In this document: positions 16,692-58,862 of the stretch, in pieces
Position numbering within the stretch: position 1 is the stretch's first letter
Layout: the number at the start of each line of letters is the position of its first letter
DNA from: Alphaproteobacteria bacterium
GTDB taxonomy: Bacteria; Pseudomonadota; Alphaproteobacteria; Rs-D84
Direction: 5' to 3'
NCBI GenBank assembly: GCA_017522445.1
Contig: JAFWZK010000014.1
Location: 21,783 to 85,782 of the forward strand
DNA length: 64,000 nucleotides
Notes under the pieces: model-generated
What the model saw: only the letters and a program-made list of their open reading frames with translations
What the model was told of the DNA's origin: nothing
Database searches by the model: none
Position numbers and translations under genes: made by a program

Positions 16692-19445
16692 ATGTCAGAA
16701 AATATAAATGAAGTAAACGAAGTGCGTGTTCCCCAGTCATCATTGGAACACGAAATGCGGACCAGTTTTTTAGACTATGCGATGTCGGTTATTGTTGATC
16801 GTGCATTGCCTGATGTTCGTGACGGGTGTAAACCTGTGCACCGCAGAATTTTGTATGTTATGAACGATGTTGCACCTGCGACCAAGCCGACTGTCAAATC
16901 TGCCCGTATTGTTGGTGATGTTATGGGTAAGTATCACCCACATGGTGACAGTTCTATTTACGAAGCGATGGTTCGTATGGGCCAGGATTTTTCCATGGGT
17001 GAAATGTTGGTCCAGGGTCAGGGAAACTTTGGTTCGCGTGACGGGGACAAAGCGGCGGCCATGCGTTATACCGAGGCGCGCTTGTCCAAACTGGGTGCGT
17101 CATTAATGGACGACATGGACAAAGACACGGTTGATTGGATGCCGAACTTTGACGGCAGTTTGCAAGAACCGGTTGTTCTGCCGACCAAGTTTCCAAACTT
17201 TTTGGTAAACGGTGGTTCTGGTATTGCGGTTGGTATGGCGACAAACGTTCCGACCTATAACCTGGGCGAGGTGTGCAATGGTATCCTGGCGGTGTTGGAC
17301 AATCGTGATATATCTGATGATGAATTGTTTACGATTATTCCTGGGCCTGATTTTCCAACTGGTGCGATGATAATGGGGCGTGCCGGTGCGTACAAGGCAC
17401 ACACCACTGGGCGTGGTTCGATAATAATTCGCTCTAAAACGCACATCGAAGATTTTCGCGACCACCAGGCGATTATTGTTGATGAAATCCCATACCAGGT
17501 GAACAAGTCGCAGATGATTATCAAAATCGCCGAATTGATAAAAGACAAACGAATCGAAGGCATATCAGAAATTCGTGACGAATCATCCAAAGAAGGTCTG
17601 CGAATTGTAATTGAATTAAAACGTGATGCGATTGCTGATGTTGTACTGAATCATTTGTTCCAGTACACAGAAATGCAGACCAGTTTTCCGGTCAACATGA
17701 TGGCATTGAATCGTGGTCGCCCAATGTTGTTTAATGTTCGTGGTGTGCTGGATGCCTTTATTGATTTCCGTGCCGAGGTTATTCGCCGCCGCACAATCTT
17801 TGATTTGAACAAGGCGCGCAATCGTGCACACACATTGTTGGGGCTGTCGGTTGCGGTTGGTAATCTGGACGAGGTTATTGAATTGATTAAATCCAGTGCC
17901 AATCCAGAAGAGGCACGCACCGCCTTGGTATCGCGTGGATGGCGTGCATCGGACATTGAATCATATATCCAGTTGATTGATGACCCGAACACAGAATACA
18001 AAGATGGCATGTTCTTTATGTCCGAAGACCAGGCCCGTGCAATTTTGGAATTGCAACTGCATCGTTTGACGGGGCTGGAACGTGATAAGATTCACGATGA
18101 TTTGACATCGTTGGGTGCGACAATTCGTGATTTGTTGGAAATATTGGGCAGTCACGAACGCATTATTCAAATTATCCGCGATGAAACAACAATGGTTCGT
18201 GATAATTGGGCATCGCCCCGGCGGACTGAAATTTCCGATGCGGAAATCGACATTGATATCGAAGACTTGATTGCCCGCGAAGACATGGTTGTAACGGTTT
18301 CGAATACCGGTTATATCAAGCGTGTTGCACTGGATACATATCGTGCCCAGAAACGCGGTGGCAAGGGACGCAATGCCATGACCACCAAAGACGATGACTA
18401 TGTTGTCCAGGTGTTTGTTGCGAACACGCACACACCGCTGTTATTCTTCAGTTCACGTGGTTTATGCTATAAATTAAAAACCTATAAATTGCCCGAGGCG
18501 GCGGCCGCGGCCAAGGGTCGTCCACTGGTAAATCTGTTGCCACTGGAACAGGGCGAAACAATCACAGCGATTTTGCCTGTGCCGGACGAAGATGTTGCAC
18601 GTGTTGCAGAATCTGGGGTTGAACACTTCTTGATGTTTGTGACTGCATCTGGCACGGTTCGCCGCAACCGGATGAGTGACTTTGATTCTATCCGTGCCAA
18701 CGGTAAAATTGCGATGAAATTGGACGAAGGTGACAGTTTGATATCTGTGTTGCCATGCAACGAGGACCAGGATGTATTCTTGTCCACATATCGTGGCCGT
18801 GCCATACGATTCCCTGTGCCAGAAATTCGTGTATTTGCAGGTCGCAATTCGACCGGTGTTCGTGGCATCACATTGGGGCCAGACGACAAGATTATCGGCA
18901 TGGCAATGTTGAATCGTGGTGAATCAGATTCGGCGGTTCGTGCGGCCTATATCAAGCAATCACGTGCCGCCCGCCGTGCCGCAACTGGTATTGAAGAAGA
19001 GGTGTCTGCCGATGAAGAAGAAACAACACTGGTTCTGGACGATGCCAAGATGGCACAAATGGCTGCCGCGGAACAGTTTATTTTAACGATATCTGAAAAC
19101 GGCTTTGGTAAACGCACCAGTTCGTATGAATATCGTTTGACGCATCGTGGTGGTGGCGGCTTTACAAATATCAAACTGGGTGGCAAGAATACTGCTGTTG
19201 CGGGTTCGTTCCCTGTATCTGATGACCAAGATATCATCATGGTAACAGACGGTGGCAAGATAATCCGTACACCTGTGTCTGATGTTCGTATTGCAGGCCG
19301 TTCGACTGCGGGTGTGACGTTGTTCCGTACGGCGGATAATGAACGTGTTGCATCTGCGATTGCAATCGAAGGGGCAGGCGAAGAAGAATCTGTGGGGTTT
19401 GCAACTGAATCTTCTGAATCTGCAACAGAAACTGTATCTGAATAG
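16692..19445 (+). CDS. gyrA: DNA gyrase subunit A
   Basis: GyrA motifs (...[11 protein letters not shown].., the active-site Tyr region, and beta-pinwheel C-terminal repeats) with an acidic tail. It is 917 aa. Confidence 0.95.
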
Positions 19446-19458
19446 TGTGGGGGTCGGC

Positions 19459-19836
19459 ATGGAAAATACAAATGAATATTTTGCATCAATAAACGATGTT
19501 TCAAAACGTTTGAACGTGCCGGCCCATACCCTGCGTTATTGGGAAAAACAGTTTCCTGTTGCCATTCGTCCCACGACGGGGGCGGGCGGTCGCCGTTATT
19601 ATCGTGCCGAGACGGTTGCAAAACTGGTTGTTATTCGTGATTTGTTGTACAGGCATGGGCTGACCATTGCAGGGGTAAAAAAATTATTGCGTGATGGTAA
19701 TTTGCCCAGTTCGGCGGATGAATTGCTGTCATCTGTATCTGTTTCGTGCGATGCGTCGTTGGCAAAAAGCATTGATACATCGGATTTGGATTTGGCAATC
19801 AGTTTACTGGAAAATGCCAAGAATATTTTGCAATAA
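19459..19836 (+). CDS. MerR-family transcriptional regulator
   Basis: Internal start MENTNEYF after a GGGGG ribosome-binding site. It has a MerR-type helix-turn-helix (DVSKRLNVPAHTLRYWEKQF). The 5' end of the track ORF overlaps the gyrA stop. Confidence 0.7.
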   Translation: MENTNEYFASINDVSKRLNVPAHTLRYWEKQFPVAIRPTTGAGGRRYYRAETVAKLVVIRDLLYRHGLTIAGVKKLLRDGNLPSSADELLSSVSVSCDASLAKSIDTSDLDLAISLLENAKNILQ

Positions 19837-20727: not shown

Positions 20728-20802
20728 TGGCACCCCCAACGGGAATCGAACCCGTGTTGCCAGAATGAGAATCTGATGTCCTGACCGCTAGACGATGGGG
20801 GC
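20728..20802 (-). tRNA. tRNA-Glu (anticodon read as CUC)
   Basis: My reverse-complement folds into a cloverleaf: acceptor GCCCCCA/UGGGGGU, D-arm GUCU..GGAC, anticodon stem UCAGA/UCUGG with loop UUCUCAU, and T-arm ACGGG-UUCGAUU-CCCGU. The CCA end is encoded. Confidence 0.8.
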
Positions 20803-21632: not shown

Positions 21633-21971
21633 ATGCCTGGGTGCGGGCGCACGGGTCCCTTACAACCGTTAAAAACCTTAGAAAACAAACATTTTTCGAT
21701 TTTTAAAACTAATATTTTGCTGGTCTTGATTGACACTTTGCTTTACACACTTGATTATAACACAAATAAATTAAAAGCACAGTATTTTTTATAACCACGT
21801 AACCACATAACCAGAAATAATATTGAAATTATCCCTAAACTGCGATAGAATTAAACCAGAATCCAGTGGGAATTGGATTCGGGACTGTGATAAGTCCAGA
21901 TTACACGGTGCAAATACGCATCGTTATCTTGATATAATGGTGCGTTGCGCCGTTATGTCCCTGACCTTTGT

Positions 21972-22081
21972 GGTCGGGGGGCTGTTGGCTATACAACAGG
22001 GGAAACCTAAAGGCCACGGAATCACTTGTAATCTGATTTATCAACTCCCCGACCGTCTTATTCCCTATGGCGGTCTTTTTT
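21972..22081 (+). promoter_or_regulatory. Conserved structured 5' leader, copy A (candidate riboswitch or attenuator with terminator)
   Basis: The outer helix is GGUCGGGG(21972-79) paired with CCCCGACC(22047-54). The inner helix uggc/gcca encloses the conserved UAUACAACAGGG...AAAG. A terminator hairpin gaccg...cggtc followed by U6 lies at 22051-22081, about 20 nt before the lipoprotein start codon. Confidence 0.55.
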
Positions 22082-22101
22082 ACACTTACAAGGGGATAGA
22101 T

Positions 22102-22542
22102 ATGAAAAAAATCATTTTTATTTTGCCTATAATATTACTGTGTGCATGCCAAACTAAAATATTTTACCCATACGATGGCACAAAAACAATAACTGGCGAT
22201 GGTGGTTTTGTATGGACACATATACCCGCATCCAATTTGGGCAAGCCCATGTTTGGCAAAACGCCAAAATATAAATACGACAGTGTAGCATTTTATGAAT
22301 CTGGACTACCCGCAGGTGCAAAATGTACCTTAGTTGGTTATTATGCAGCATCTGACATAAAACAATTTGCCAGAAAGATGCTTGAAATGGATGCAAATGT
22401 CGCAACCAAATCCCCTGTTATTCTGCCTATCAGCTTTGATAATAATGCTGGCATACTCGGTGGCACACGTGCAGCCAGCGATTGGTATAACGTGGACAAC
22501 ATAAAAGTTGCCACTGGGTTTAATATTTTTGAATGTAAATAA
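22102..22542 (+). CDS. Small lipoprotein or secreted protein
   Basis: The track ORF is trimmed to MKKIIFILPIILLCAC, a lipobox-like signal, with an AGGGGA ribosome-binding site 6 nt upstream. The mature part is Gly/Tyr-rich. Confidence 0.6.
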   Translation: MKKIIFILPIILLCACQTKIFYPYDGTKTITGDGGFVWTHIPASNLGKPMFGKTPKYKYDSVAFYESGLPAGAKCTLVGYYAASDIKQFARKMLEMDANVATKSPVILPISFDNNAGILGGTRAASDWYNVDNIKVATGFNIFECK

Positions 22543-22962: not shown

Positions 22963-23439
22963 ATGGGGTATAATATGAACAAAGTAAAAAGAATTGCAAC
23001 CATAGCAATTATCTGCATAATAGCATCCGCTATTGGCGTAAGTATTTATAACTACACCCAAAACCAAAAGATAAAAAAACAGCAAGAAGATTGCCAAAAT
23101 TTAGCACACGAATTCTTTATTGATACTTTTGGTACGGCGGACGATATATACGATTATTGCAAAACCACAAAAGAACAAGAACTGTATAAGAAAAACAAAA
23201 AATTATATGGACTTGATGGCGCAACACTAGAAGACCATCAAAAAATATTCGCATTATGCGAATGTGCCACAGCCAATTTATACAAAACCATTATTCAGCC
23301 TTGGTTGGACAAATGTTATGCTAACGATGCGACATGGCTTTTAGAACCAGCAAGAATGAAAACAACCATTCAAAAAGACCATAAAATTAAAAACCTCTTC
23401 ATTGATACCAGTTATGAATTATGTGAAAGATTTAACTAA
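22963..23439 (+). CDS. Membrane-anchored Cys-containing hypothetical protein
   Basis: 158-aa ORF. The alternative start at 22975 (MNKVKRIA) follows a GGGG motif. It has an N-terminal TM segment. Confidence 0.45.
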   Translation: MGYNMNKVKRIATIAIICIIASAIGVSIYNYTQNQKIKKQQEDCQNLAHEFFIDTFGTADDIYDYCKTTKEQELYKKNKKLYGLDGATLEDHQKIFALCECATANLYKTIIQPWLDKCYANDATWLLEPARMKTTIQKDHKIKNLFIDTSYELCERFN

Positions 23440-23454
23440 AAAAGGAACAAACAC

Positions 23455-23571
23455 ATGAAAGCGGTAATTCCTGCACGTGTATCTTCCCGAGAACAAGAAA
23501 TGGAGCAATCTATTGATGCGCAGCTGGAAAACATGAAAAGTATGCCCAGTGCAAAGAATTACCGCTATTAA
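23455..23571 (+). pseudogene. Serine recombinase (resolvase/invertase) N-terminal fragment
   Basis: The 38-codon ORF MKAVIPARVSSREQEMEQSIDAQ... matches the catalytic Y/I-x-A-R-V-S-[ST]-x-x-Q motif of serine recombinases, then terminates. I see no continuation in any frame. Confidence 0.55.
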
Positions 23572-23764
23572 AAACATTTCAGATAATCGAAAGTTCAACA
23601 CGTGGTGAACGCAAAATAATTTACCAATTCCCAAGGTTTATATTTTCTGTATGTATTGAATATCCCGCATTATGCTGCGTTAGTCGTTTCTTTAAATCAT
23701 CGGTTTGCCCGATGTATTTTTGTTCTGGATGGGAAATGCTTTTTATAAGATAGACATAAAACAT

Positions 23765-23933: not shown

Positions 23934-24005
23934 GTTGGGGCGCACGGATTCGAACCATGATAAAGAGAACCAAAATCTCTTGTCCTACCATTAGACGACA
24001 CCCCA
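23931..24005 (-). tRNA. tRNA-Gln (anticodon UUG)
   Basis: The reverse-complement is UGGGGUG...AGAGA-UUUUGGU-UCUCU...CAUGG-UUCGAAU-CCGUG-CGCCCCA-A-CCA, with the same architecture as E. coli tRNA-Gln. Confidence 0.85.
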
Positions 24006-24283: not shown

Positions 24284-24507
24284 ATCTCGTGCAAAGAAAT
24301 ATTGATTTTAAGATGTTTTTTTTGTATCATAAACAATGAATCCACAGGTTAGTGGTTTCAGGGTCTTCAAAAACCTGTTAAACAACCGGCATAACAATCA
24401 TTGTTGTGCTGTAATCCGCACAAAAGAAATGGACGCGGATGCGTCTTTTTTTTGTGAAACACCTTTGGCACACCGTGTAATTCTTTTACATGTTTTCCAC
24501 ATTGTGT

Positions 24508-24625
24508 GTCGGGGTGCTGCCGGCTATACCACAGGGGCATGGCCCCAAAGGCCGGCGGGAATCATTGTTGTTTATGGTTTTTTGAACACCCCGACCACCG
24601 TATCTGTATGGTGGTTATTTTATTG
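24508..24625 (+). promoter_or_regulatory. Conserved structured 5' leader, copy B
   Basis: The outer helix is GUCGGGG(24508-14) paired with CCCCGAC(24589-95). The inner helix gccggc/gccggc encloses UAUACCACAGGGG, a ggggcauggcccc hairpin and AAAG. A terminator gaccacc...ggugguu followed by a U-rich run lies at 24593-24625, and the start codon is at 24640. Confidence 0.55.
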
Positions 24626-24639
24626 TCGGGGGGCGATAG

Positions 24640-25527
24640 ATGTTTCGCAGGATTGTTTTTCCTGTTATTTATATGTTGTTGTTTATTTGCACTGCATATG
24701 CACAAATGCAGTGTGATGACAGCAAGTGCTGGCATACATTAAATTTTGGTGAACATTCTGTACGTGCCTATGACAAACGTTCTACAACCCCGTCAATTTG
24801 TATTCAGGACACATCTGGTCAAATCTGGTATGTTAACATGGTTTTGGGGATGTTGCCACAAACACTGCATGCCCAGCAGGGTACAGAAATATATTCCGCA
24901 ACAGATGCACTGTATGAAATTGTTGATGGACGACTGGTATGGGCACATCCTGATATTTATTTGCAAAGCAGTGGCACCCAGTACATAGATACCGGTATTA
25001 CACCATCAGACACACTGGGGTTGCGATTTGATTATCTGCGTGAAAGTGGTACATCAGATCATGTGCTGATTGGGTCGCAATTGGAAATTGGTTCGGCCGT
25101 TCCTGAATATGCCCGCTTTACATTGGGGCAAAGCAACAGCCCATATTATGGATGGAATACGTATCGGCATACTGGGTTAAGTATCACGGAACGTTATTTG
25201 GTCAACTTGAATTACATGAACAGTCGTGAAGTTACGTACAATGGTGCGGTTGTTAAAACGGGGCTGGATACACATCTTGACAATCCGTACTCTATTTATG
25301 TATTCTGCACGAACCGCAAAGGGACGGCATCTGTTTGTTCCAAGATAAAAGTGTATTCTGCGATATTAACGGACGGCGCGGAAACGGTTATGCATTTGGT
25401 TCCTGTGCCATCAGGTCTGCAGATTGGTGATTTTACAGTTCCATCAAACGGCATGTTTGATATTGTTTCTCAGAAATTTTATGGCAATTCTGGCACGGGT
25501 GATTTTGAATTTGGCACAGATTATTAA
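24640..25527 (+). CDS. Secreted hypothetical protein
   Basis: 295 aa with a signal peptide (MFRRIVFPVIYMLLFICTAYA) and no recognisable domain. Its GGGG..GATAGatg start context is shared with the 22102 lipoprotein gene. Confidence 0.6.
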   Translation: MFRRIVFPVIYMLLFICTAYAQMQCDDSKCWHTLNFGEHSVRAYDKRSTTPSICIQDTSGQIWYVNMVLGMLPQTLHAQQGTEIYSATDALYEIVDGRLVWAHPDIYLQSSGTQYIDTGITPSDTLGLRFDYLRESGTSDHVLIGSQLEIGSAVPEYARFTLGQSNSPYYGWNTYRHTGLSITERYLVNLNYMNSREVTYNGAVVKTGLDTHLDNPYSIYVFCTNRKGTASVCSKIKVYSAILTDGAETVMHLVPVPSGLQIGDFTVPSNGMFDIVSQKFYGNSGTGDFEFGTDY

Positions 25528-39785: not shown

Positions 39786-39816
39786 AAGTTCCGCCCACAT
39801 TGGGCGGATTTTTTTA
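39786..39816. terminator. Bidirectional intrinsic terminator (ccgcccacattgggcgg)
   Basis: Hairpin flanked by A- and T-runs, lying between the convergent yidC and Stealth genes. Confidence 0.7.
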
Positions 39817-40803
39817 TATTTCGAATTGTGATTTATCTGGAAACTTTTTATTTAAAAATTCCCAGTTTTTTTGTCTGACCTTATCGGATGTATTTGCACT
39901 GTCGTTTATGCAGAACAGTGGTGGGTTTACGTGCTGCATTGCCCGTTCCGCATTTTCGCAATACAGTGGTGCGTTTTTGCATTCGTGATGATGTGTAATA
40001 TTATACAGAAAATGTCGTGCACGTTTAAAATGTCTGGCCCGTTTCAGTATTGCACGTCCGTGCACAAAGTCATACAGATTAAAAATCCATCGTTGCAGTT
40101 CCCAGTTTGTTCTGAATTTATTTCTGATTTGCATATCAAAGTGTTGCACCAGCAAAGGGTGATTTCTGCATTGTATCATCGAAGATTTGATATATGGGTC
40201 GATATTATGTGCAGGTGCCATTTGCAGTAATTTTTTTCCAAATATTTTATGCAATTTGTGTGCCGCCATCAGAATAGTTTTTCTGTAATCAGATTCAACC
40301 ATTTCCATTGCGTATCCGACATTGCTGATTTTTTTATTTTGTGTATACCATACAATTGCTCGTCCTTGTTTGTCATAAAAGAAATCTGGTGTCAGTGGTT
40401 TGTTAAAGAACATATCATCATTTGCCAACAAGAAATGTTCACTCAGGTTTGGTATATTCATGATACACATTTCAATTGCAACCGAATTGAACGTAGGCAG
40501 ACTGTCTGCCGGCATAATTTGTTCATGTGAAACAATTGTGATTTTTGGATTGTTTGTGTTCAGCCATTTTGGTATCTGGCCAAATCCTGTCACGATAAAG
40601 ATATGGTTTATCCAAGGTGCGTATTTTTCTGCACTTCGCAGGGCGAATTTTAATTCATCATTATCCCTCCATCGGGCATCCACGGTTGAGTCATGACAGA
40701 CGGCGACCTGTTTTTTTATTTTTTGCAGCCAGAAATTTTTTTCTGTTATCCAGTTTTTATCACTGCCATCAACCCACATATACACTAAATCAATTTTTTT
40801 CAT
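39814..40803 (-). CDS. Stealth-family hexose-1-phosphoryltransferase (CR1-CR3 motifs present)
   Basis: Trimmed to the internal start MKKIDLVYMWVDGSD, which is Stealth CR1. It also carries DNDELKFALRSAEKYAPWINHIFIVT (CR2) and FNSVAIEMCIMNIPNLSEHFLLANDDMFF (CR3). An AAAGGA ribosome-binding site precedes the start. The track's 5' extension would overlap leader C. Confidence 0.85.
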   Translation of the reverse strand: MKKIDLVYMWVDGSDKNWITEKNFWLQKIKKQVAVCHDSTVDARWRDNDELKFALRSAEKYAPWINHIFIVTGFGQIPKWLNTNNPKITIVSHEQIMPADSLPTFNSVAIEMCIMNIPNLSEHFLLANDDMFFNKPLTPDFFYDKQGRAIVWYTQNKKISNVGYAMEMVESDYRKTILMAAHKLHKIFGKKLLQMAPAHNIDPYIKSSMIQCRNHPLLVQHFDMQIRNKFRTNWELQRWIFNLYDFVHGRAILKRARHFKRARHFLYNITHHHECKNAPLYCENAERAMQHVNPPLFCINDSANTSDKVRQKNWEFLNKKFPDKSQFEI

Positions 40804-40828
40804 TTTTATGTCCTTTGATTTTGCCAAC

Positions 40829-40931
40829 AAAAAACCGTCAAAAATTGACGGCCGGGCATTTTCAAGGTCATAAATCCAAATGACTCTGTGGCTTTCGGGA
40901 ATCCCTGTTGTATAACCACAGATACCCGACC
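40829..40931 (-). promoter_or_regulatory. Conserved structured 5' leader, copy C
   Basis: On the minus strand the outer helix is GGUCGGG(40931-25) paired with CCCGGCC(40856-50), including one U-G wobble. The inner helix cugugg/ccacag encloses UAUACAACAGGG, a gggauuccc hairpin and AAAG. The terminator ccgucaa-uuu-uugacgg followed by U6 lies at 40851-40829, and the start codon is at 40803. Confidence 0.55.
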
Positions 40932-41057
40932 TCACATGGGGGTCAGGTTACATATCGACACGCATTGCGTGCCGTGGATTTATGGGTCTTGAAAACCCAG
41001 ACCTTTGATTATCAGGTCGATGGCATTATGCCCCAGAAAAATAAAATTTTCAACTGA

Positions 41058-42106: not shown

Positions 42107-44512
42107 CTATAATATTGGCGGGAAACAGTCACCACCACTTTCTGGGCAACAGTTAAACCCTTGTTCGCCCATATCGGTGTATATTTCGCCTGGACAGCAA
42201 CCATTTGCATCTGGTGGTGTGCCACCTTCGCACAGTATTTGTTCCTCGACTTCTTCGATTGCGGTCGTTGTGCCAGTGTCGTACGGGTTTTGTACGGCAC
42301 CATCTGTATTGTATTGTACCCCCAGTATTTCCTGGTTAAACTGTTGCGAGCCAACACCCCCCAGGTCTTCTATTTTTTGCTGATACTGTTGCTGTTGATC
42401 TTCGCGATAGATATCGTATTGCAACGCCTTTTTAGACTGATAATTCAAAGAATCACAATACATTTTCAGTGTACTATACGAATGCCCCCCGCATACATTA
42501 GTCTTGCCTGCACCCTGTCCGGTGCATTCGGATTTGACACGCCACAATCCTTGTTCGTCTTCTTCGCAGTATATACCTGTTGTGAACGAACGCGATTGCC
42601 CAACCCATGAATCATCTTGTGCGGCATACAGTTCCATGTCATCTGATGTGATTGTTCGTCTTTTATCGTTGCCAAATGGGGCGACTGCACACTTTTTATT
42701 TCCGTTTGGCCCATCTTTGGTGCCACAGGTAATTTGCAAATCCACGGGTGAATAGACGGTTATCCGTGTACCTGCTGCGATTGTAAATGGTGGGACGGTA
42801 TTGTCCATCATATCGACCATTAACTTTTGTGCGACCTGGTTCCATGCGGTTATAATTTCATTTTTCGCCAGTTCCGATGAACGCATTGTGCCGCTTTGCA
42901 CCACTGTATTGTTATCCAGGTCGATTTGATTCACAAACGCATCTGCAACCGGGTTAATCAGGTTGATTGCCGCCGGCACAAATGCGGTCAGCATAGGCAT
43001 AAAGAACTGTTCCAGATAGTCTGAACTGCCCCGTCCCGGTACACCAACGCGTCCCTGGGCATCTGCCGAATATGGGTCAGAGCCTGCTGGAAAATTAAAT
43101 TCCACACCATCTGGTCGAATAAACTGATACCATTTGATTTGCATACGTCCAATTGTCTTGTATGGTCCTGGGACTTCACCTGTAACATATCCCAACATCA
43201 GTGTTCCTGTTGGAATAACAATATTGCGTCCGTCATCAGAAAAAACATTTCTGTCGACTGTTGCACGAACCGGTACACCCAACTGCAGGGCAGGGATGTC
43301 TGCACGAATATCAGACACGATTGTTGCCGGGATTGGCTTATACTGACGTAAAACAAAACTGCGGTCGTACGGTGCGGTTGAAGTCACAGTATTTTGACCT
43401 GTGGTCCCAAATATAACACCCGTTTCGGGGGCAGTTTTTATAACACTGCCAAAACCACCATCTTCGGCCCCCAGTCGCATTGCGCCGTAACTGTCTGGTA
43501 ATTCATCCAGTTCCAATTGTTGTGCCCGATTTACCACTGCGATTGCAGGTGCATTGGATAATTCTGGCAACACGCCACCGCTGATTGCGGCGAACCCGAT
43601 ATGGTCTGCATCTGTTCCGATTTTTTTACCATTGTTATCGGTAATTATACCGTTATCTGGATTGTATGTTCCCGCGGGTTTGCTGCAGTTTGTATCGGCA
43701 AACGTATGGAAAAAGTACGCCCCGCCACTGGGTTTTATCCATCCGCTTTGCCGTCCCTGATTGTCAAAGGCCGCAAACGCAAAGTCCGAACAACCATCTG
43801 GTATTGTAAATGTACGTTCTGTCACGTTTTTTGTTATCACTGGTTCGACTATGACATCTGGTGCAATAGATTCTATTTCCCGTTTTATTTCTTCTTTGAC
43901 AGGGGTGTATGCGATTGGTTCGAACTCGGGCTCTGGCTGTTCTTGGATAACAGGTTCAACAATTTTAACGGTCTGGGGTTCTGCGGGTTTTTGTTCAATC
44001 TGTGGTGCGACCGCCCCCAGTGTAATGACGATTTTTGCAGTTTTTTTCATTGCATCCGTTTCGTCGGCGTCGTGCCAGTCGACAAATACCGGCAAATTTT
44101 TTGTTGTCATAACGGCTGTTGGTGCATAGTCCAAATACACACCACATGCCAGAGTGCTGTCTATTTTTTTAATTTGTTTACACGTGTCCCGCAATGTCAG
44201 CCCCGGCGTATTTTCATGCAGTCTGACATCAACAACATTGACAGGTGCGGTTGCAGAAATTTTAACTGTTTCTGATTTTTTTTGTCCAACCAGAGTATCT
44301 GCCCAGTTTATCATATCTGGTGAAATGACCAAATCGGTCGGTATGGCATCTGTTGCATCATCATCATTGTTGTTATTATCGCCCCCAATCAACAACACCA
44401 GCAAAATCAGCACCACGGTAAATGCGGCCGCCAACAACAACCACTGTACCCGTCTGGGGGTATTTTTACGCAAATCAAGAAATTGCTGTTTTATTTTACT
44501 CATGCTCTCCAC
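42107..44512 (-). CDS. virB10: Type IV secretion protein VirB10/TrbI with a long N-terminal region and a Cys-rich C-terminal extension
   Basis: N-terminal cytoplasmic segment and TM helix (WLLLAAAFTVVLILLVLLIGG), a Pro/Glu-rich linker, and a TrbI/VirB10 core (...VPVRATVDRNVFSDDGRNIVIPTGTLMLGY...GRVGVPG...). It is 801 aa. The last ~200 aa contain about a dozen Cys. Confidence 0.8.
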   Translation of the reverse strand: MESMSKIKQQFLDLRKNTPRRVQWLLLAAAFTVVLILLVLLIGGDNNNNDDDATDAIPTDLVISPDMINWADTLVGQKKSETVKISATAPVNVVDVRLHENTPGLTLRDTCKQIKKIDSTLACGVYLDYAPTAVMTTKNLPVFVDWHDADETDAMKKTAKIVITLGAVAPQIEQKPAEPQTVKIVEPVIQEQPEPEFEPIAYTPVKEEIKREIESIAPDVIVEPVITKNVTERTFTIPDGCSDFAFAAFDNQGRQSGWIKPSGGAYFFHTFADTNCSKPAGTYNPDNGIITDNNGKKIGTDADHIGFAAISGGVLPELSNAPAIAVVNRAQQLELDELPDSYGAMRLGAEDGGFGSVIKTAPETGVIFGTTGQNTVTSTAPYDRSFVLRQYKPIPATIVSDIRADIPALQLGVPVRATVDRNVFSDDGRNIVIPTGTLMLGYVTGEVPGPYKTIGRMQIKWYQFIRPDGVEFNFPAGSDPYSADAQGRVGVPGRGSSDYLEQFFMPMLTAFVPAAINLINPVADAFVNQIDLDNNTVVQSGTMRSSELAKNEIITAWNQVAQKLMVDMMDNTVPPFTIAAGTRITVYSPVDLQITCGTKDGPNGNKKCAVAPFGNDKRRTITSDDMELYAAQDDSWVGQSRSFTTGIYCEEDEQGLWRVKSECTGQGAGKTNVCGGHSYSTLKMYCDSLNYQSKKALQYDIYREDQQQQYQQKIEDLGGVGSQQFNQEILGVQYNTDGAVQNPYDTGTTTAIEEVEEQILCEGGTPPDANGCCPGEIYTDMGEQGFNCCPESGGDCFPPIL

Positions 44513-57700: not shown

Positions 57701-58862
57701 TGTTAACGATGGTGACTCTGTTGAAAAAGGTGCCAAGGTTGCAGAATGGGATCCATATTCTAACACAATCATCGCAGAAACAGATGGTACTGTGAATTAT
57801 TGTGATTTGGACGAAAACGTATCATTCCAGGAAGAAGTTGATTCCATGACAGGTATCGTTTCTCGCAAGGTTATTAACTGGAAAGCGAACACGAAAAAGG
57901 CATTAAAACCTGCAATTACACTGGTTGATGAATCAGGGAAAGTTATTTCTTTGGGTGGCAAAAAGATTGCGGAATATCTGTTACCTGTATATTCTGTTCT
58001 GACGGTTGCCAACGGCGACAAGGTACATGCTGGTGACATTATTGCCCGTATCCCTGTCCAGACCAAGCGTACGGGTGACATTACCGGTGGTTTGCCACGT
58101 GTTAACGAGTTGTTGGAAGTTCGTCGTCCAACCAACCCTGCGATATTGGCCGAAGAAGACGGTACTGTCGAGCTGGAAGATGCCAAGTCAAAGATTATAA
58201 TCCGCATTTTACCAGACAATGGCACAGCCCCTGTTGAATATGCTGTACCCAAAGGTACAAATCTGTTGGTTCGCACAGGCGATGTTGTGAAAAAGGCAGA
58301 AAAACTGGTTGACGGTGACGAAGTTCCCCAGGATATCTTGCGTATTTTGGGTCAGAAAGCATTGGCAACCTTTATGGTGGACAAGATTCAACAGGTTTAT
58401 CGTTTACAAGGTGTGGTAATTAATGACAAGCATATTGAAATCTTGATACGTGAAATGACACGCCGTGTAGAAATTACAAATCCTGGTGATACAGGTTTCT
58501 TGATGGGTGCGGTTGTTGATCGTGTTGATTTCGAAGAAGAAAATGCACGTGTTGCACGCAATAATGGTCGTCTGGCCGAAGCTTCTCAGGTTCTGGTTGG
58601 TTTGACCCGTGCGTCTTTGACATCTCGTTCATTTATATCGAACGCATCGTTCCAGCAGACAACCAAGGTATTGGTTGATGCCGCCATCAGTGGTGCAACC
58701 GACAGACTGGTTGGTATAAATGATAACTTGATTGTTGGTCGTCTGATACCAATTGGCACAGGTGCATACGTACGTCGCGTACGTGAAATTGCCCGCGAAG
58801 AAGAACGTGCAGAACGTTTGGCCCGCGAAGGTGGCGATAAACAACAGATGTTGGACATCTAG
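54750..58862 (+). CDS. rpoC: DNA-directed RNA polymerase subunit beta'
   Basis: 1370 aa with the zinc-binding Cys cluster and the NADFDGD active site. Confidence 0.97.
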   Translation: MSKMLQKIFGQIDTKEQFDALRITIASPEEILSWSKGEVTKPETINYHTMKPEDEGLFCQVIFGPVKDYECKCGKYKRAKHQKHAVCERCNVEICASSVRRERMGHIKLAIPVAHTWFLREGKIATLLNNLPQKKLEQVISYDAYIVIEPGLTNLKQYDVISEDDYQKAVEDFGEDAFRVGIGAEGIRSIIAGLDMGDERTRLRAELADVKSETKRKALIKQLKLVEAFLDSETKPEWMLPDILPVIPPDMRPLVTLDAGHVAASDLNDLYRRVIIRNNRLKKFIELHAPDIIIRNEKRMLQEAVDSLFDNGHKARPMVSQNRRPLKSLSDSLRGKSGRFRMNLLGKRVDYSGRSVIVSGPTLKLHQVGLPKTMALELFKPFVFAELMAGDYATTLKYARKMVENGEDIVWEILEKVIHEHPVLLNRAPTLHRLSLLAFEPVLIEGKAIRLHPLVCSGFNADFDGDQMSVHVPISLEAQLEARTLMLSSNNVLSPANGAPMIVPSQDMVLGVYYISLINGEHTDKSPRFANMDEVQLALDNKTITLHTPIIARINGKTYKTTAGRMILGELLPKSGEVEFDQVNKVMPRSAIKSLLSMTYERCGDKAMILLADALKDTGFEQAARSGISIGYDDIVIPAEKESMIAESEAAANEIEEQYQNGLLSSGERHNKLIDLWHKTTDKLGDMAYAALGKSTGDNWNSIHMMALSEARGSKRQIQQLAGMRGMMQKPDGSIIEVPIISNFKEGLTMSEYFTSTHGARKGMSDTALKTADAGYLTRRLVELAQNTVITEHDCGTTESIEARPVYTGSTLSVALGDVVLGRTAAQDIVHPISKEVIVPAGELITKAAAKAINESGLPSVRVRSVLTCCSDGLCAKCYGMDLSRNALVHVGEAVGVIAGQSIGEPGTQLTLRTFHIGGVASGDAASHFIEVPVAGRVKLIGVNTIKNTSGRVVVLSRNGKLAIVDDKDNELFSSKLPYASMLIVNDGDSVEKGAKVAEWDPYSNTIIAETDGTVNYCDLDENVSFQEEVDSMTGIVSRKVINWKANTKKALKPAITLVDESGKVISLGGKKIAEYLLPVYSVLTVANGDKVHAGDIIARIPVQTKRTGDITGGLPRVNELLEVRRPTNPAILAEEDGTVELEDAKSKIIIRILPDNGTAPVEYAVPKGTNLLVRTGDVVKKAEKLVDGDEVPQDILRILGQKALATFMVDKIQQVYRLQGVVINDKHIEILIREMTRRVEITNPGDTGFLMGAVVDRVDFEEENARVARNNGRLAEASQVLVGLTRASLTSRSFISNASFQQTTKVLVDAAISGATDRLVGINDNLIVGRLIPIGTGAYVRRVREIAREEERAERLAREGGDKQQMLDI

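Follow-up and report, generated by a model that had tools for sequence, protein, structure and literature searches.

A three-copy structured leader of a gut alphaproteobacterium: a divergent branch, by sequence and fold, of the sRNA-Xcc1 class with a candidate transcription attenuator

What kind of RNA stands, in the sense orientation, in front of three genes in a 64,000-nt stretch of an alphaproteobacterial genome (Alphaproteobacteria bacterium, GenBank assembly GCA_017522445.1, contig JAFWZK010000014.1, positions 21,783 to 85,782; hereafter the window, whose own numbering is used throughout)? An earlier reading made from the letters alone (the sequence-only reading) had noticed a leader of about 105 nt before a lipoprotein gene, a secreted protein gene and a Stealth gene, and had proposed a candidate novel riboswitch or attenuator built from covarying helices and an intrinsic terminator. 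The analysis reported here places the three elements, by their full-length matches to Rfam family RF02221, in a divergent subfamily of the known small RNA (sRNA) class sRNA-Xcc1 rather than in a categorically new riboswitch class, and points to a transcription attenuator as a possible function.

Exactly three copies of the element are present in the window, A and B on the forward strand and C on the reverse strand (Table 1). A covariance model (R1), constructed from 23 gap-free homologues with the structure set by hand and searched with filters off, scored copies A, C and B at 95.1, 60.7 and 56.9 bits, with the rest of the 64 kb at or below 15 bits. All six parts of the layout that had been described were recovered at these three sites, which are also the only ones that R1 finds. 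The outer helix, P1, is GGUCGGGG/CCCCGACC, with a U-G pair in copy C, and a second helix, P2, differs in sequence from copy to copy while keeping its pairing (A, CUGU(U)GGC/GCCACGG; B, CUGCCGGC/GCCGGCGG; C, CUGUGGU/GCCACAG). The string UAUACMACAGGG is invariant, with exactly three occurrences in the window; a one-mismatch match at 58229, considered as a fourth copy, lies inside a long open reading frame (ORF) and was set aside as chance. All three copies contain a mini-hairpin, P2a, followed by AAAG, and the motif GRAUCAY within a further hairpin, P3. The terminator of each copy begins at the GACC/GGCC of the P1 3' strand and overlaps P1 by 4 nt, and a ribosome-binding site (RBS) and ATG follow 44-48 nt after P1, with the Shine-Dalgarno (SD) sequence and ATG about 20-25 nt beyond the T-tract. 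The three cores fold better than their shuffles, with z scores from -3.7 to -4.4. Elsewhere in the window, a weak R1 match at 19452-19524 on the forward strand (12.2 bits, E=1.9) has a P1-like helix, GGUCGGCAUG/CGUGCCGGCC, with UUUGAAC before its 3' strand, and is probably the terminator-like hairpin of a 917-aa ORF ending at 19445.

The helix covariation that had been seen in three copies holds in a much larger set. An exact-pattern scan of species-representative genomes yielded at least 118 loci, 4 of them chance matches, from which 101 distinct cores were obtained, and an R1 search of 99 loci plus the window gave 107 matches, including 7 outside the scan pattern; all homologue counts given here (107, 117 and 98 copies) refer to copies among the matches listed. 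A plain MAFFT alignment of the 101 cores followed by RNAalifold recovered only P1 and P2a, with P2 and P3 misaligned, and was replaced by an alignment guided by the covariance model. Across 98 distinct homologues aligned in this way, 98.6% of cells are paired compared with 30-52% with slid partners, a figure somewhat inflated by the fitting of the alignment to the structure but with a margin over the slid controls that is still very large. Double-sided changes occur at 17 of the 24 base pairs, and none of 500 shuffles reached the observed values. In the members found without the pattern, GUCGGG/CCCGAC and the YAUAYMAYA loop are still conserved and P2a covaries. The pattern scan and the R1 search of its loci gave more than 100 homologues with covariation kept, nearly all of them in metagenome-assembled genomes (MAGs) of Candidatus Enterousia and other gut Alphaproteobacteria (hereafter the Enterousia family), several per genome, with at least 6-7 copies per genome before heterogeneous surface and envelope genes. 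Leaders of this type were also met in assemblies labelled otherwise (L014 and L021 in CAVGNU01, Bacteroides fragilis; L027 and L032 in CAZJGX01, Muribaculaceae; L114 in Gastranaerophilales), whose contigs were probably mis-binned.

In order to place the element among known RNAs, the window was scanned against Rfam at gathering thresholds and with E-value thresholds. The former returned four tRNAs only. With the latter, full-length matches to RF02221 sRNA-Xcc1 (model positions 1-87) were obtained for A, C and B at 41.5, 32.8 and 28.9 bits, below the curated gathering score of 53 bits, with E-values of 2.7e-6 in a local search and of 7e-4, 0.078 and 0.67 in the whole window. A canonical comparison set was assembled by a pattern scan of viral contigs (IMG/VR) with the canonical core, which gave more than 120 prophage loci (L119-L238); nine of the ten tested score 65-85 bits with RF02221, as true members do. 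Detection was reciprocal, as R1 produced 43 full-length matches in 80 prophage loci at 24-52 bits (maximum 51.8), with E-values down to 3e-8. Because of these full-length RF02221 matches and the reciprocal detection of true members, we assign the window elements, on sequence and fold, to a divergent subfamily of the sRNA-Xcc1 class, and the earlier statement that their consensus belongs to no Rfam family does not stand. Besides RF02221, Rfam families at E <=10 comprised noise and one weak BASRCI27 match only. No riboswitch family was matched at E <=10 in a 251-nt search, and the cyclic di-GMP (c-di-GMP) riboswitch GEMM (RF01051), which the sequence-only reading had rightly called a superficial resemblance, was also absent at E <=1 from the whole-window scan.

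sRNA-Xcc1 was initially described in Xanthomonas campestris, as an RNA of 88 nt (PMC2996969). It precedes symE in integron cassettes (bioRxiv 10.1101/2025.06.18.660453) and an ORF6N gene in APSE phage (10.1101/2020.03.17.996009), and is also present in Xylella islands (PMC12189769); its accumulation as a discrete RNA of about 88 nt is known from Xanthomonas and Xylella only (PMC2996969, PMC12189769). The window copies are without this mobile context, having neither an integron cassette or prophage around them nor an antirepressor or symE gene downstream. Instead, they adjoin yidC, a marR-family gene, an outer-membrane efflux gene and tRNA genes, in a window whose housekeeping stretches are 70-84% identical to Enterousia-like MAG loci (blastn).

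The position of the copies relative to genes is highly regular. A same-strand ORF starts within 300 nt in 112 of 117 analysable copies, at a median of 47 nt after P1 (interquartile range 40-52), and the remaining five are near locus edges or have longer spacers; an SD-like motif is present in most of the copies. The products encoded behind them mostly have signal-peptide- or lipobox-like N-termini and no Pfam match, and the others include PLD-like proteins, GT2 and GT1 glycosyltransferases, outer-membrane protein (OMP) beta-barrel and opacity-type proteins, RgpF, Stealth and ThyX, a heterogeneous set with no shared metabolic or transport logic. Leader A, from 21859 to 22110 and including the RBS and first three codons, is 96% identical to L006:758-1009 and L118:2662-2912 (blastn), and only over that span; synteny resumes about 1.3 kb downstream (23439-23624 compared with L006:1837-2022 and L118:3625-3809), and the genes between are unrelated. 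As the high identity is confined to the leader and different genes lie behind it, the leader behaves as a discrete module, and what follows leader A looks like a variable surface-gene slot.

A module that recurs before different genes, in many copies and with 8-bp terminal inverted repeats (GGTCGGGG...CCCCGACC), could also be a selfish repeat, like a miniature inverted-repeat transposable element (MITE) or an RPE. Such repeats were expected to be near-identical and to lie in random orientations or inside genes, and the copies show no such pattern: they are diverged (66% mean column identity) with compensatory substitutions, 112 of 117 are in sense at a fixed distance upstream of an ORF, no copy in the window is reversed relative to its gene, and conservation covers an asymmetric unit that greatly exceeds the core bounded by the inverted repeats. 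This reading, to which we attach almost no weight, is effectively refuted. A coding function was rejected as well. The frames of genes A and C are open through the leader, but family-wide only 24% of cases have an open gene frame, compared with 13-19% for the other frames, which we attribute to coincidence; as the frame is not kept open across the family, the element is non-coding. The ORFs 21823-22542 (+, 239 aa) and 39814-40935 (-, 373 aa), in which the frames of genes A and C run open upstream across the whole element, may be over-long products of automatic annotation.

The conserved unit also proved larger than had been described. It reaches about 115-170 nt further upstream than the start given by the sequence-only reading, so that the whole leader measures about 215-300 nt and the three-way junction forms its 3' third. 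A CCCYGAC segment 6-8 nt upstream of P1 can pair with the GUCGGGG of the P1 5' strand in a helix designated P0, which has at least 7 bp in 61 of 107 copies compared with 17 of 107 shuffled ones. The base preceding GUCGGGG covaries with P0 (U-A 17, C-G 4, U-G 6) and not with P1 (RNAalifold pair counts, 29 homologues). Further upstream lies a 5' domain of about 115 nt, with a sharp conservation edge at 21859 in two independent comparisons (nhmmer; blastn to L006 and L118), and in all three copies a promoter-like site stops about 7 nt before this edge. The GGGA tetraloop of its first hairpin, H1, is invariant, and two H1 pairs have 10 double-sided changes each (RNAalifold, 29 homologues). A second model (R2), covering H1-H2 of this domain, matches only copies A and B in the window. 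A leader-peptide idea was considered, and the ATGs in the H3/H4 region are not conserved. The 5' domain at 21844-21981 (+) has a weak full-length match to RF02600 BASRCI27 (Brucella sRNA CI27; 21.6 bits compared with a gathering score of 59.8, E=0.006 in a 186-nt search), possibly through distant alphaproteobacterial kinship or by chance. In leader B, an extra hairpin followed by U8 (24431-24454) is shared with the B-class homologues L003, L018 and L061, which suggests two attenuation points in series in leaders of this class.

The relation between terminator and P1 suggests how such a leader could work. A hairpin with a T-tract is present in 99 of the 107 copies, and 92 of these 99 hairpins have a 5' arm that begins exactly 4 nt inside the 3' strand of P1. 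In the full-leader minimum free energy (MFE) folds of A, B and C the terminator is complete, accompanied by P0 in A and C, and these folds are 13-14 kcal/mol better than the folds in which P1 is enforced, which is why the default state is read as OFF. We give about even credence to a default-OFF transcription attenuator of three segments in which the P1-closed junction would be the antiterminator. Each leader would be transcribed from its own promoter ahead of a surface, secreted or polysaccharide gene, and upstream CCCYGAC could pair with GUCGGGG as P0, an anti-antiterminator. The P1 3' strand could either pair with its 5' strand, closing a domain of P1, a P2 arm (internal loop YAUAYMAYA/RAAR and GNRA-capped P2a) and P3, or give its last 4 nt, GACC, to the terminator base; the partner of GACC would be the GGUC that opens P1 in one case and the GGUC that closes the terminator stem beside the U-tract in the other. 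By default, P0 and the full terminator would form, transcription would stop about 20-25 nt before the start codon, and a short leader RNA would be released. With P1 closed by the junction fold, GACC would be withheld, the terminator stem would end short of the U-tract and read-through into the gene would follow. The base of the stem next to the U-tract is critical in intrinsic terminators, which is why withholding 4 nt there should matter. A trans-acting factor bound to the conserved loop or to the junction may hold P1 closed, and an RNA-binding protein or global signal is somewhat more likely as the trigger than a metabolite, because the copies are distributed like a regulon (signal-peptide proteins, lipoproteins, PLD-like, GT2, OMP beta-barrel, Stealth, RgpF) and because P1 is conserved in sequence.

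Several points weigh against this attenuator. The sequence-only reading had held P1 and the terminator to be mutually exclusive; their competition stands, but the overlap is only 4 nt, and in short constructs (copy B) a trimmed P1 is thermodynamically compatible with the terminator. Likewise, its picture of an aptamer with an expression platform is borne out in the conserved fold and the competing platform, whereas P0 and the 5' domain had been missed and the logic would be three-state. Copy B has no clear P0, and an MFE comparison of RNAs of 200-300 nt takes in spurious long-range pairs. Termination, read-through and the start site are all predictions, the proposed trigger is so far without a candidate binding protein or ligand, and the conserved H1-H4 domain has a role that the model leaves unexplained. 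In addition, the terminated product may possibly act in trans, by analogy with canonical relatives that accumulate as a free RNA of about 88 nt (PMC2996969).

Table 1. Window positions of the features of leaders A, B and C, with example loci of canonical sRNA-Xcc1
Feature	Position	Strand	Details
A, promoter-like site	21823..21851	+	TTGAAA, 17 nt, TAGAAT; predicted start ~21858-21859
A, 5' domain	21859..21898	+	H1 (9-bp stem, GGGA tetraloop) 21859-21880; H2 hairpin ~21881-21898; RNAalifold pair counts; R2 57.1 bits
A, H3/H4 region	21906..21957	+	CGGUGC...GCAUCG-UUAUC and GGUGC...GCGCC-GUUAU; conserved, partial covariation; alternative nested or tandem pairings possible
A, P0 5' strand	21958..21966	+	UCCCUGACC, partner GGUCGGGGG (21972-21980); 9 bp; competes with P1; present in full-leader MFE
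A, Xcc1-type three-way junction	21972..22054	+	RF02221 41.5 bits; R1 95.1 bits; covariation
A, P1	21973-21981/22045-22053	+	
A, P2	21982-21989/22013-22019	+	
A, internal loop	21990-21998 and 22009-22012	+	UAUACAACA and AAAG
A, P2a	21999-22008	+	GAAA loop
A, P3	22020-22024/22034-22038	+	
A, J3/1	22039-22044	+	
A, predicted intrinsic terminator	22051..22081	+	GACCGUC/GGCGGUC + U6; first 4 nt (22051-22054) also form the end of the P1 3' strand; predicted U-tract 22076-22081
A, UUACAAG	22086-22092	+	complementary to P3 loop CUUGUAA (22025-22031)
A, SD and start region	22086..22104	+	SD AAGGGG 22090-22095; ATG 22102 of 146-aa lipoprotein-like gene
B, promoter-like site	24302..24330	+	TTGATT, 17 nt, TATCAT
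B, diverged H1-H2 5' domain	24335..24380	+	R2 17.6 bits, E=0.0036
B, extra terminator-like hairpin inside leader	24431..24454	+	GGACGC/GCGUCU + U8; at the position of H4 in other copies
B, Xcc1-type three-way junction	24507..24596	+	RF02221 28.9 bits; R1 56.9 bits; fold z=-3.8
B, predicted terminator	24593..24624	+	GACCACCGUA/UAUGGUGGUU + U-rich tail; starts at GACC of P1; predicted U-tract ~24617-24624
B, SD and start region	24625..24642	+	SD region GUCGGGGGG repeats P1 5' strand and would be able to pair with P1 3' strand; ATG 24640 of 295-aa secreted protein gene
C, promoter-like site	41025..41053	-	TTGAAA, 17 nt, CATAAT
C, P0 5' strand	40941..40948	-	ACCUGACC, partner GGUCGGGU (40931-40924); 8 bp; present in MFE
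C, Xcc1-type three-way junction	40850..40931	-	RF02221 32.8 bits; R1 60.7 bits; fold z=-4.4
C, predicted terminator	40827..40853	-	GGCCGUCAA/UUGACGGUU + U-tract; overlaps P1 3' end; predicted U-tract 40832-40827
C, SD and start region	40801..40816	-	SD AAAGGA; ATG 40803 of Stealth-family gene (Pfam Stealth_CR2 3.4e-41)
Canonical sRNA-Xcc1, example loci	L121:6761-6890; L125:2574-2695; L126:1477-1608		

The same fold invites a reading as an orphan riboswitch for a metabolite or second messenger, in which the Xcc1-type junction would be the aptamer and its ligand would close P1 as an ON switch. Its conserved junction and internal loop with covarying helices, the competition of P1 with the terminator in a constant register, and the use of the same core with two expression platforms (a terminator in the window family, RBS pairing in phage members), a hallmark of riboswitches, all speak for it. 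Signals of the c-di-GMP type control surface-protein genes, which also fits. However, many copies per genome stand before unrelated surface genes, and in phages before antirepressors, with no transporter or biosynthetic logic apparent; no riboswitch family was matched, as described above; P1 is conserved in its sequence beyond its pairing; and the most conserved loop is 7 bp away from the junction. We regard a metabolite-sensing aptamer as rather unlikely.

The prophage loci provide a second view of the core. Phages P1 and P7 encode c4 RNA in the leaders upstream of their antirepressor genes. IsrK of Salmonella Gifsy-1 is likewise a leader-encoded RNA upstream of an antirepressor gene (PMC4825925). 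In 88 of 105 prophage cases the canonical sRNA-Xcc1 core precedes a gene on its own strand, at a median distance of 48 nt, and the genes downstream are antirepressors of six N-terminal families (P22_AR_N, AntA, KilA-N, Rha, Bro-N and ORF6N), including antB of Stx2a-converting phages. The P3 loop and J3/1 of these members are complementary to the RBS-proximal spacer, covarying with it between loci (own spacer 8.0 compared with 6.17 +/- 0.09 for permuted ones). This placement agrees with the published copies upstream of symE and of an ORF6N gene, and suggests that canonical sRNA-Xcc1 is a cis regulator of the c4/IsrK kind rather than a generic trans-acting sRNA.

Should the window leaders work in the same manner, the terminated short RNA would be the active product, pairing in cis or in trans with the read-through mRNA at its RBS. 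Beyond the RBS complementarity of the true RF02221 members, such a dual function is favoured by the accumulation of sRNA-Xcc1 as an 88-nt RNA (PMC2996969), by the example of IsrK, which works in this way (PMC4825925), by the perfect 7-bp match of the copy A P3 loop just 5' of the SD, and by a weak enrichment of complementarity between J3/1 plus the P1 3' strand and the region -24..+6 (score >=7 in 23% of copies compared with 11% of shuffles, p=0.015). Copies B and C, in contrast, are without a convincing loop-RBS match, and in the Enterousia family the complementarity of the P3 loop is no higher for its own spacer than for other spacers (3.76 compared with 3.70 +/- 0.08; 5.95 compared with 5.72 +/- 0.125). 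Antisense pairing of the P3 loop to the RBS was therefore rejected as a rule for this family, as it does not rise above permuted controls; the universal feature is the terminator and not RBS pairing. A dual-function leader appears less likely still than a metabolite riboswitch.

A related alternative is that the elements are independent genes for trans-acting sRNAs and that the genes downstream are expressed separately. The Rfam type of RF02221 is "Gene; sRNA", and a separate promoter-like site and terminator accompany every copy. Against this, the U-tract lies only about 20-25 nt from the ATG, too close for a further promoter to fit between them; 112 of 117 copies keep a fixed spacing and orientation to the ORF; and the identity of leader A with L006 and L118 extends through the RBS and first codons while the genes behind differ. 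Separate sRNA genes are accordingly improbable in our view.

One core is thus used with two downstream platforms, a terminator in the Enterousia family and RBS pairing in the phage members, which argues that the core is a regulatory sensor or scaffold. We tentatively extend this to the whole class, as a minority possibility: the Xcc1 fold could be a sensor domain, either an orphan riboswitch aptamer or a site bound by a widespread regulator. In prophages and integrons of beta- and gammaproteobacteria it would act through RBS pairing on genes for antirepressors and toxins, and in Enterousia-like gut alphaproteobacteria through the P0/P1/terminator attenuator on a large, co-regulated set of variable surface-protein and polysaccharide genes. 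Many genome annotations list sRNA-Xcc1 as a trans-acting, virulence-linked sRNA, and if the extension is correct, a family that has carried the label of a trans-acting "sRNA" for 15 years becomes a class of cis-regulatory switches. The window shows a divergent and highly expanded Xcc1 branch that appears hard-wired to a terminator before surface, secreted and polysaccharide genes in an uncultured clade of gut alphaproteobacteria, and together with the canonical phage leaders it provides a concrete, testable case for the whole family being cis-regulatory. It also raises the possibility that surface variation in Enterousia-like gut bacteria is under a common control, and a ligand or protein partner, if found, would explain phage antirepressor control and the surface regulon alike.

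Further observations concern the surroundings of the leaders and short motifs within them. tRNA genes at 20731-20802 (-) and 23935-24005 (-) lie around copies A and B, and an 801-aa ORF with a TrbI (conjugation) domain at 42107-44512 (-) adjoins copy C; an island or the remnant of a mobile element could surround the copies. In one subclass (L002, L014, L029, L031, L035, L051, L027, L039, L047 and L101), a conserved stretch of about 60-150 nt (..ACCnnnGATGTnnGACnTTATTCCCAnnnnGGGnGGATGCG..) between the terminator and GT2 glycosyltransferase genes (MPRVSVLMPAYNS...) may be a second RNA element. Several conserved GGA motifs occur at hairpin loops or SD sequences, namely in the H1 loop GGGA (21868-21871), in ACAGGGAU of copy C (40909-40902, containing ACAGGGA) and in the SD regions at 22090-22097 and 24627-24633; these may resemble CsrA/RsmA-type binding sites, and GGGA is also a plain GNRA tetraloop.

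Finally, the leader was compared with known systems. Its likeness to c-di-GMP-I (GEMM) consists of a superficial ACAGGGNAAACC...AAAGSC, a three-helix layout and the association with surface genes, whereas helix order and conserved nucleotides differ and cmscan gives no match. ON-type riboswitches and attenuators, such as the pbuE adenine riboswitch and the trp leader with its 1:2/2:3/3:4 logic, share with it a closing helix that competes with a terminator, and sequestration of a strand by P0 would supply the anti-antiterminator, antiterminator and terminator states. The window family differs from these in having no known ligand, leader peptide or binding protein, in the terminator overlap of 4 nt only, and in its dozens of paralogous copies per clade before unrelated genes. 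With IsrK and c4 it shares a structured RNA at the 5' end of the operon that it would control, with its own terminator and with read-through giving the mRNA, and canonical Xcc1 is found in the same place, upstream of antirepressors; the window elements, however, match neither RF01394 nor RF01695 in sequence or structure, RBS pairing is not general among them and their targets are not phage genes.

The closest likeness is to RF02221 itself, in P1 (GYCGGG/CCCGRC), the bulged P2, the 5' internal loop AUACAAYA, the 3-bp GNRA-capped P2a, the 3' loop GAA/AAAG, P3, a J3/1 ending in AAC, and the sense placement with a median P1-to-start distance of 47 nt in the window family and 48 nt in the canonical one. 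The two branches differ in the flipped P2a (GGG..CCC in the window family, CCC..GGG in the canonical), in the terminator that overlaps P1 where canonical members have a P4 hairpin and RBS-pairing segments, and in the 5' domain of about 115 nt and the P0 that the window family adds. While canonical sRNA-Xcc1 is found in phages and integrons of beta- and gammaproteobacteria, the window family is chromosomal and multi-copy, and precedes surface-protein genes in a clade of gut alphaproteobacteria.

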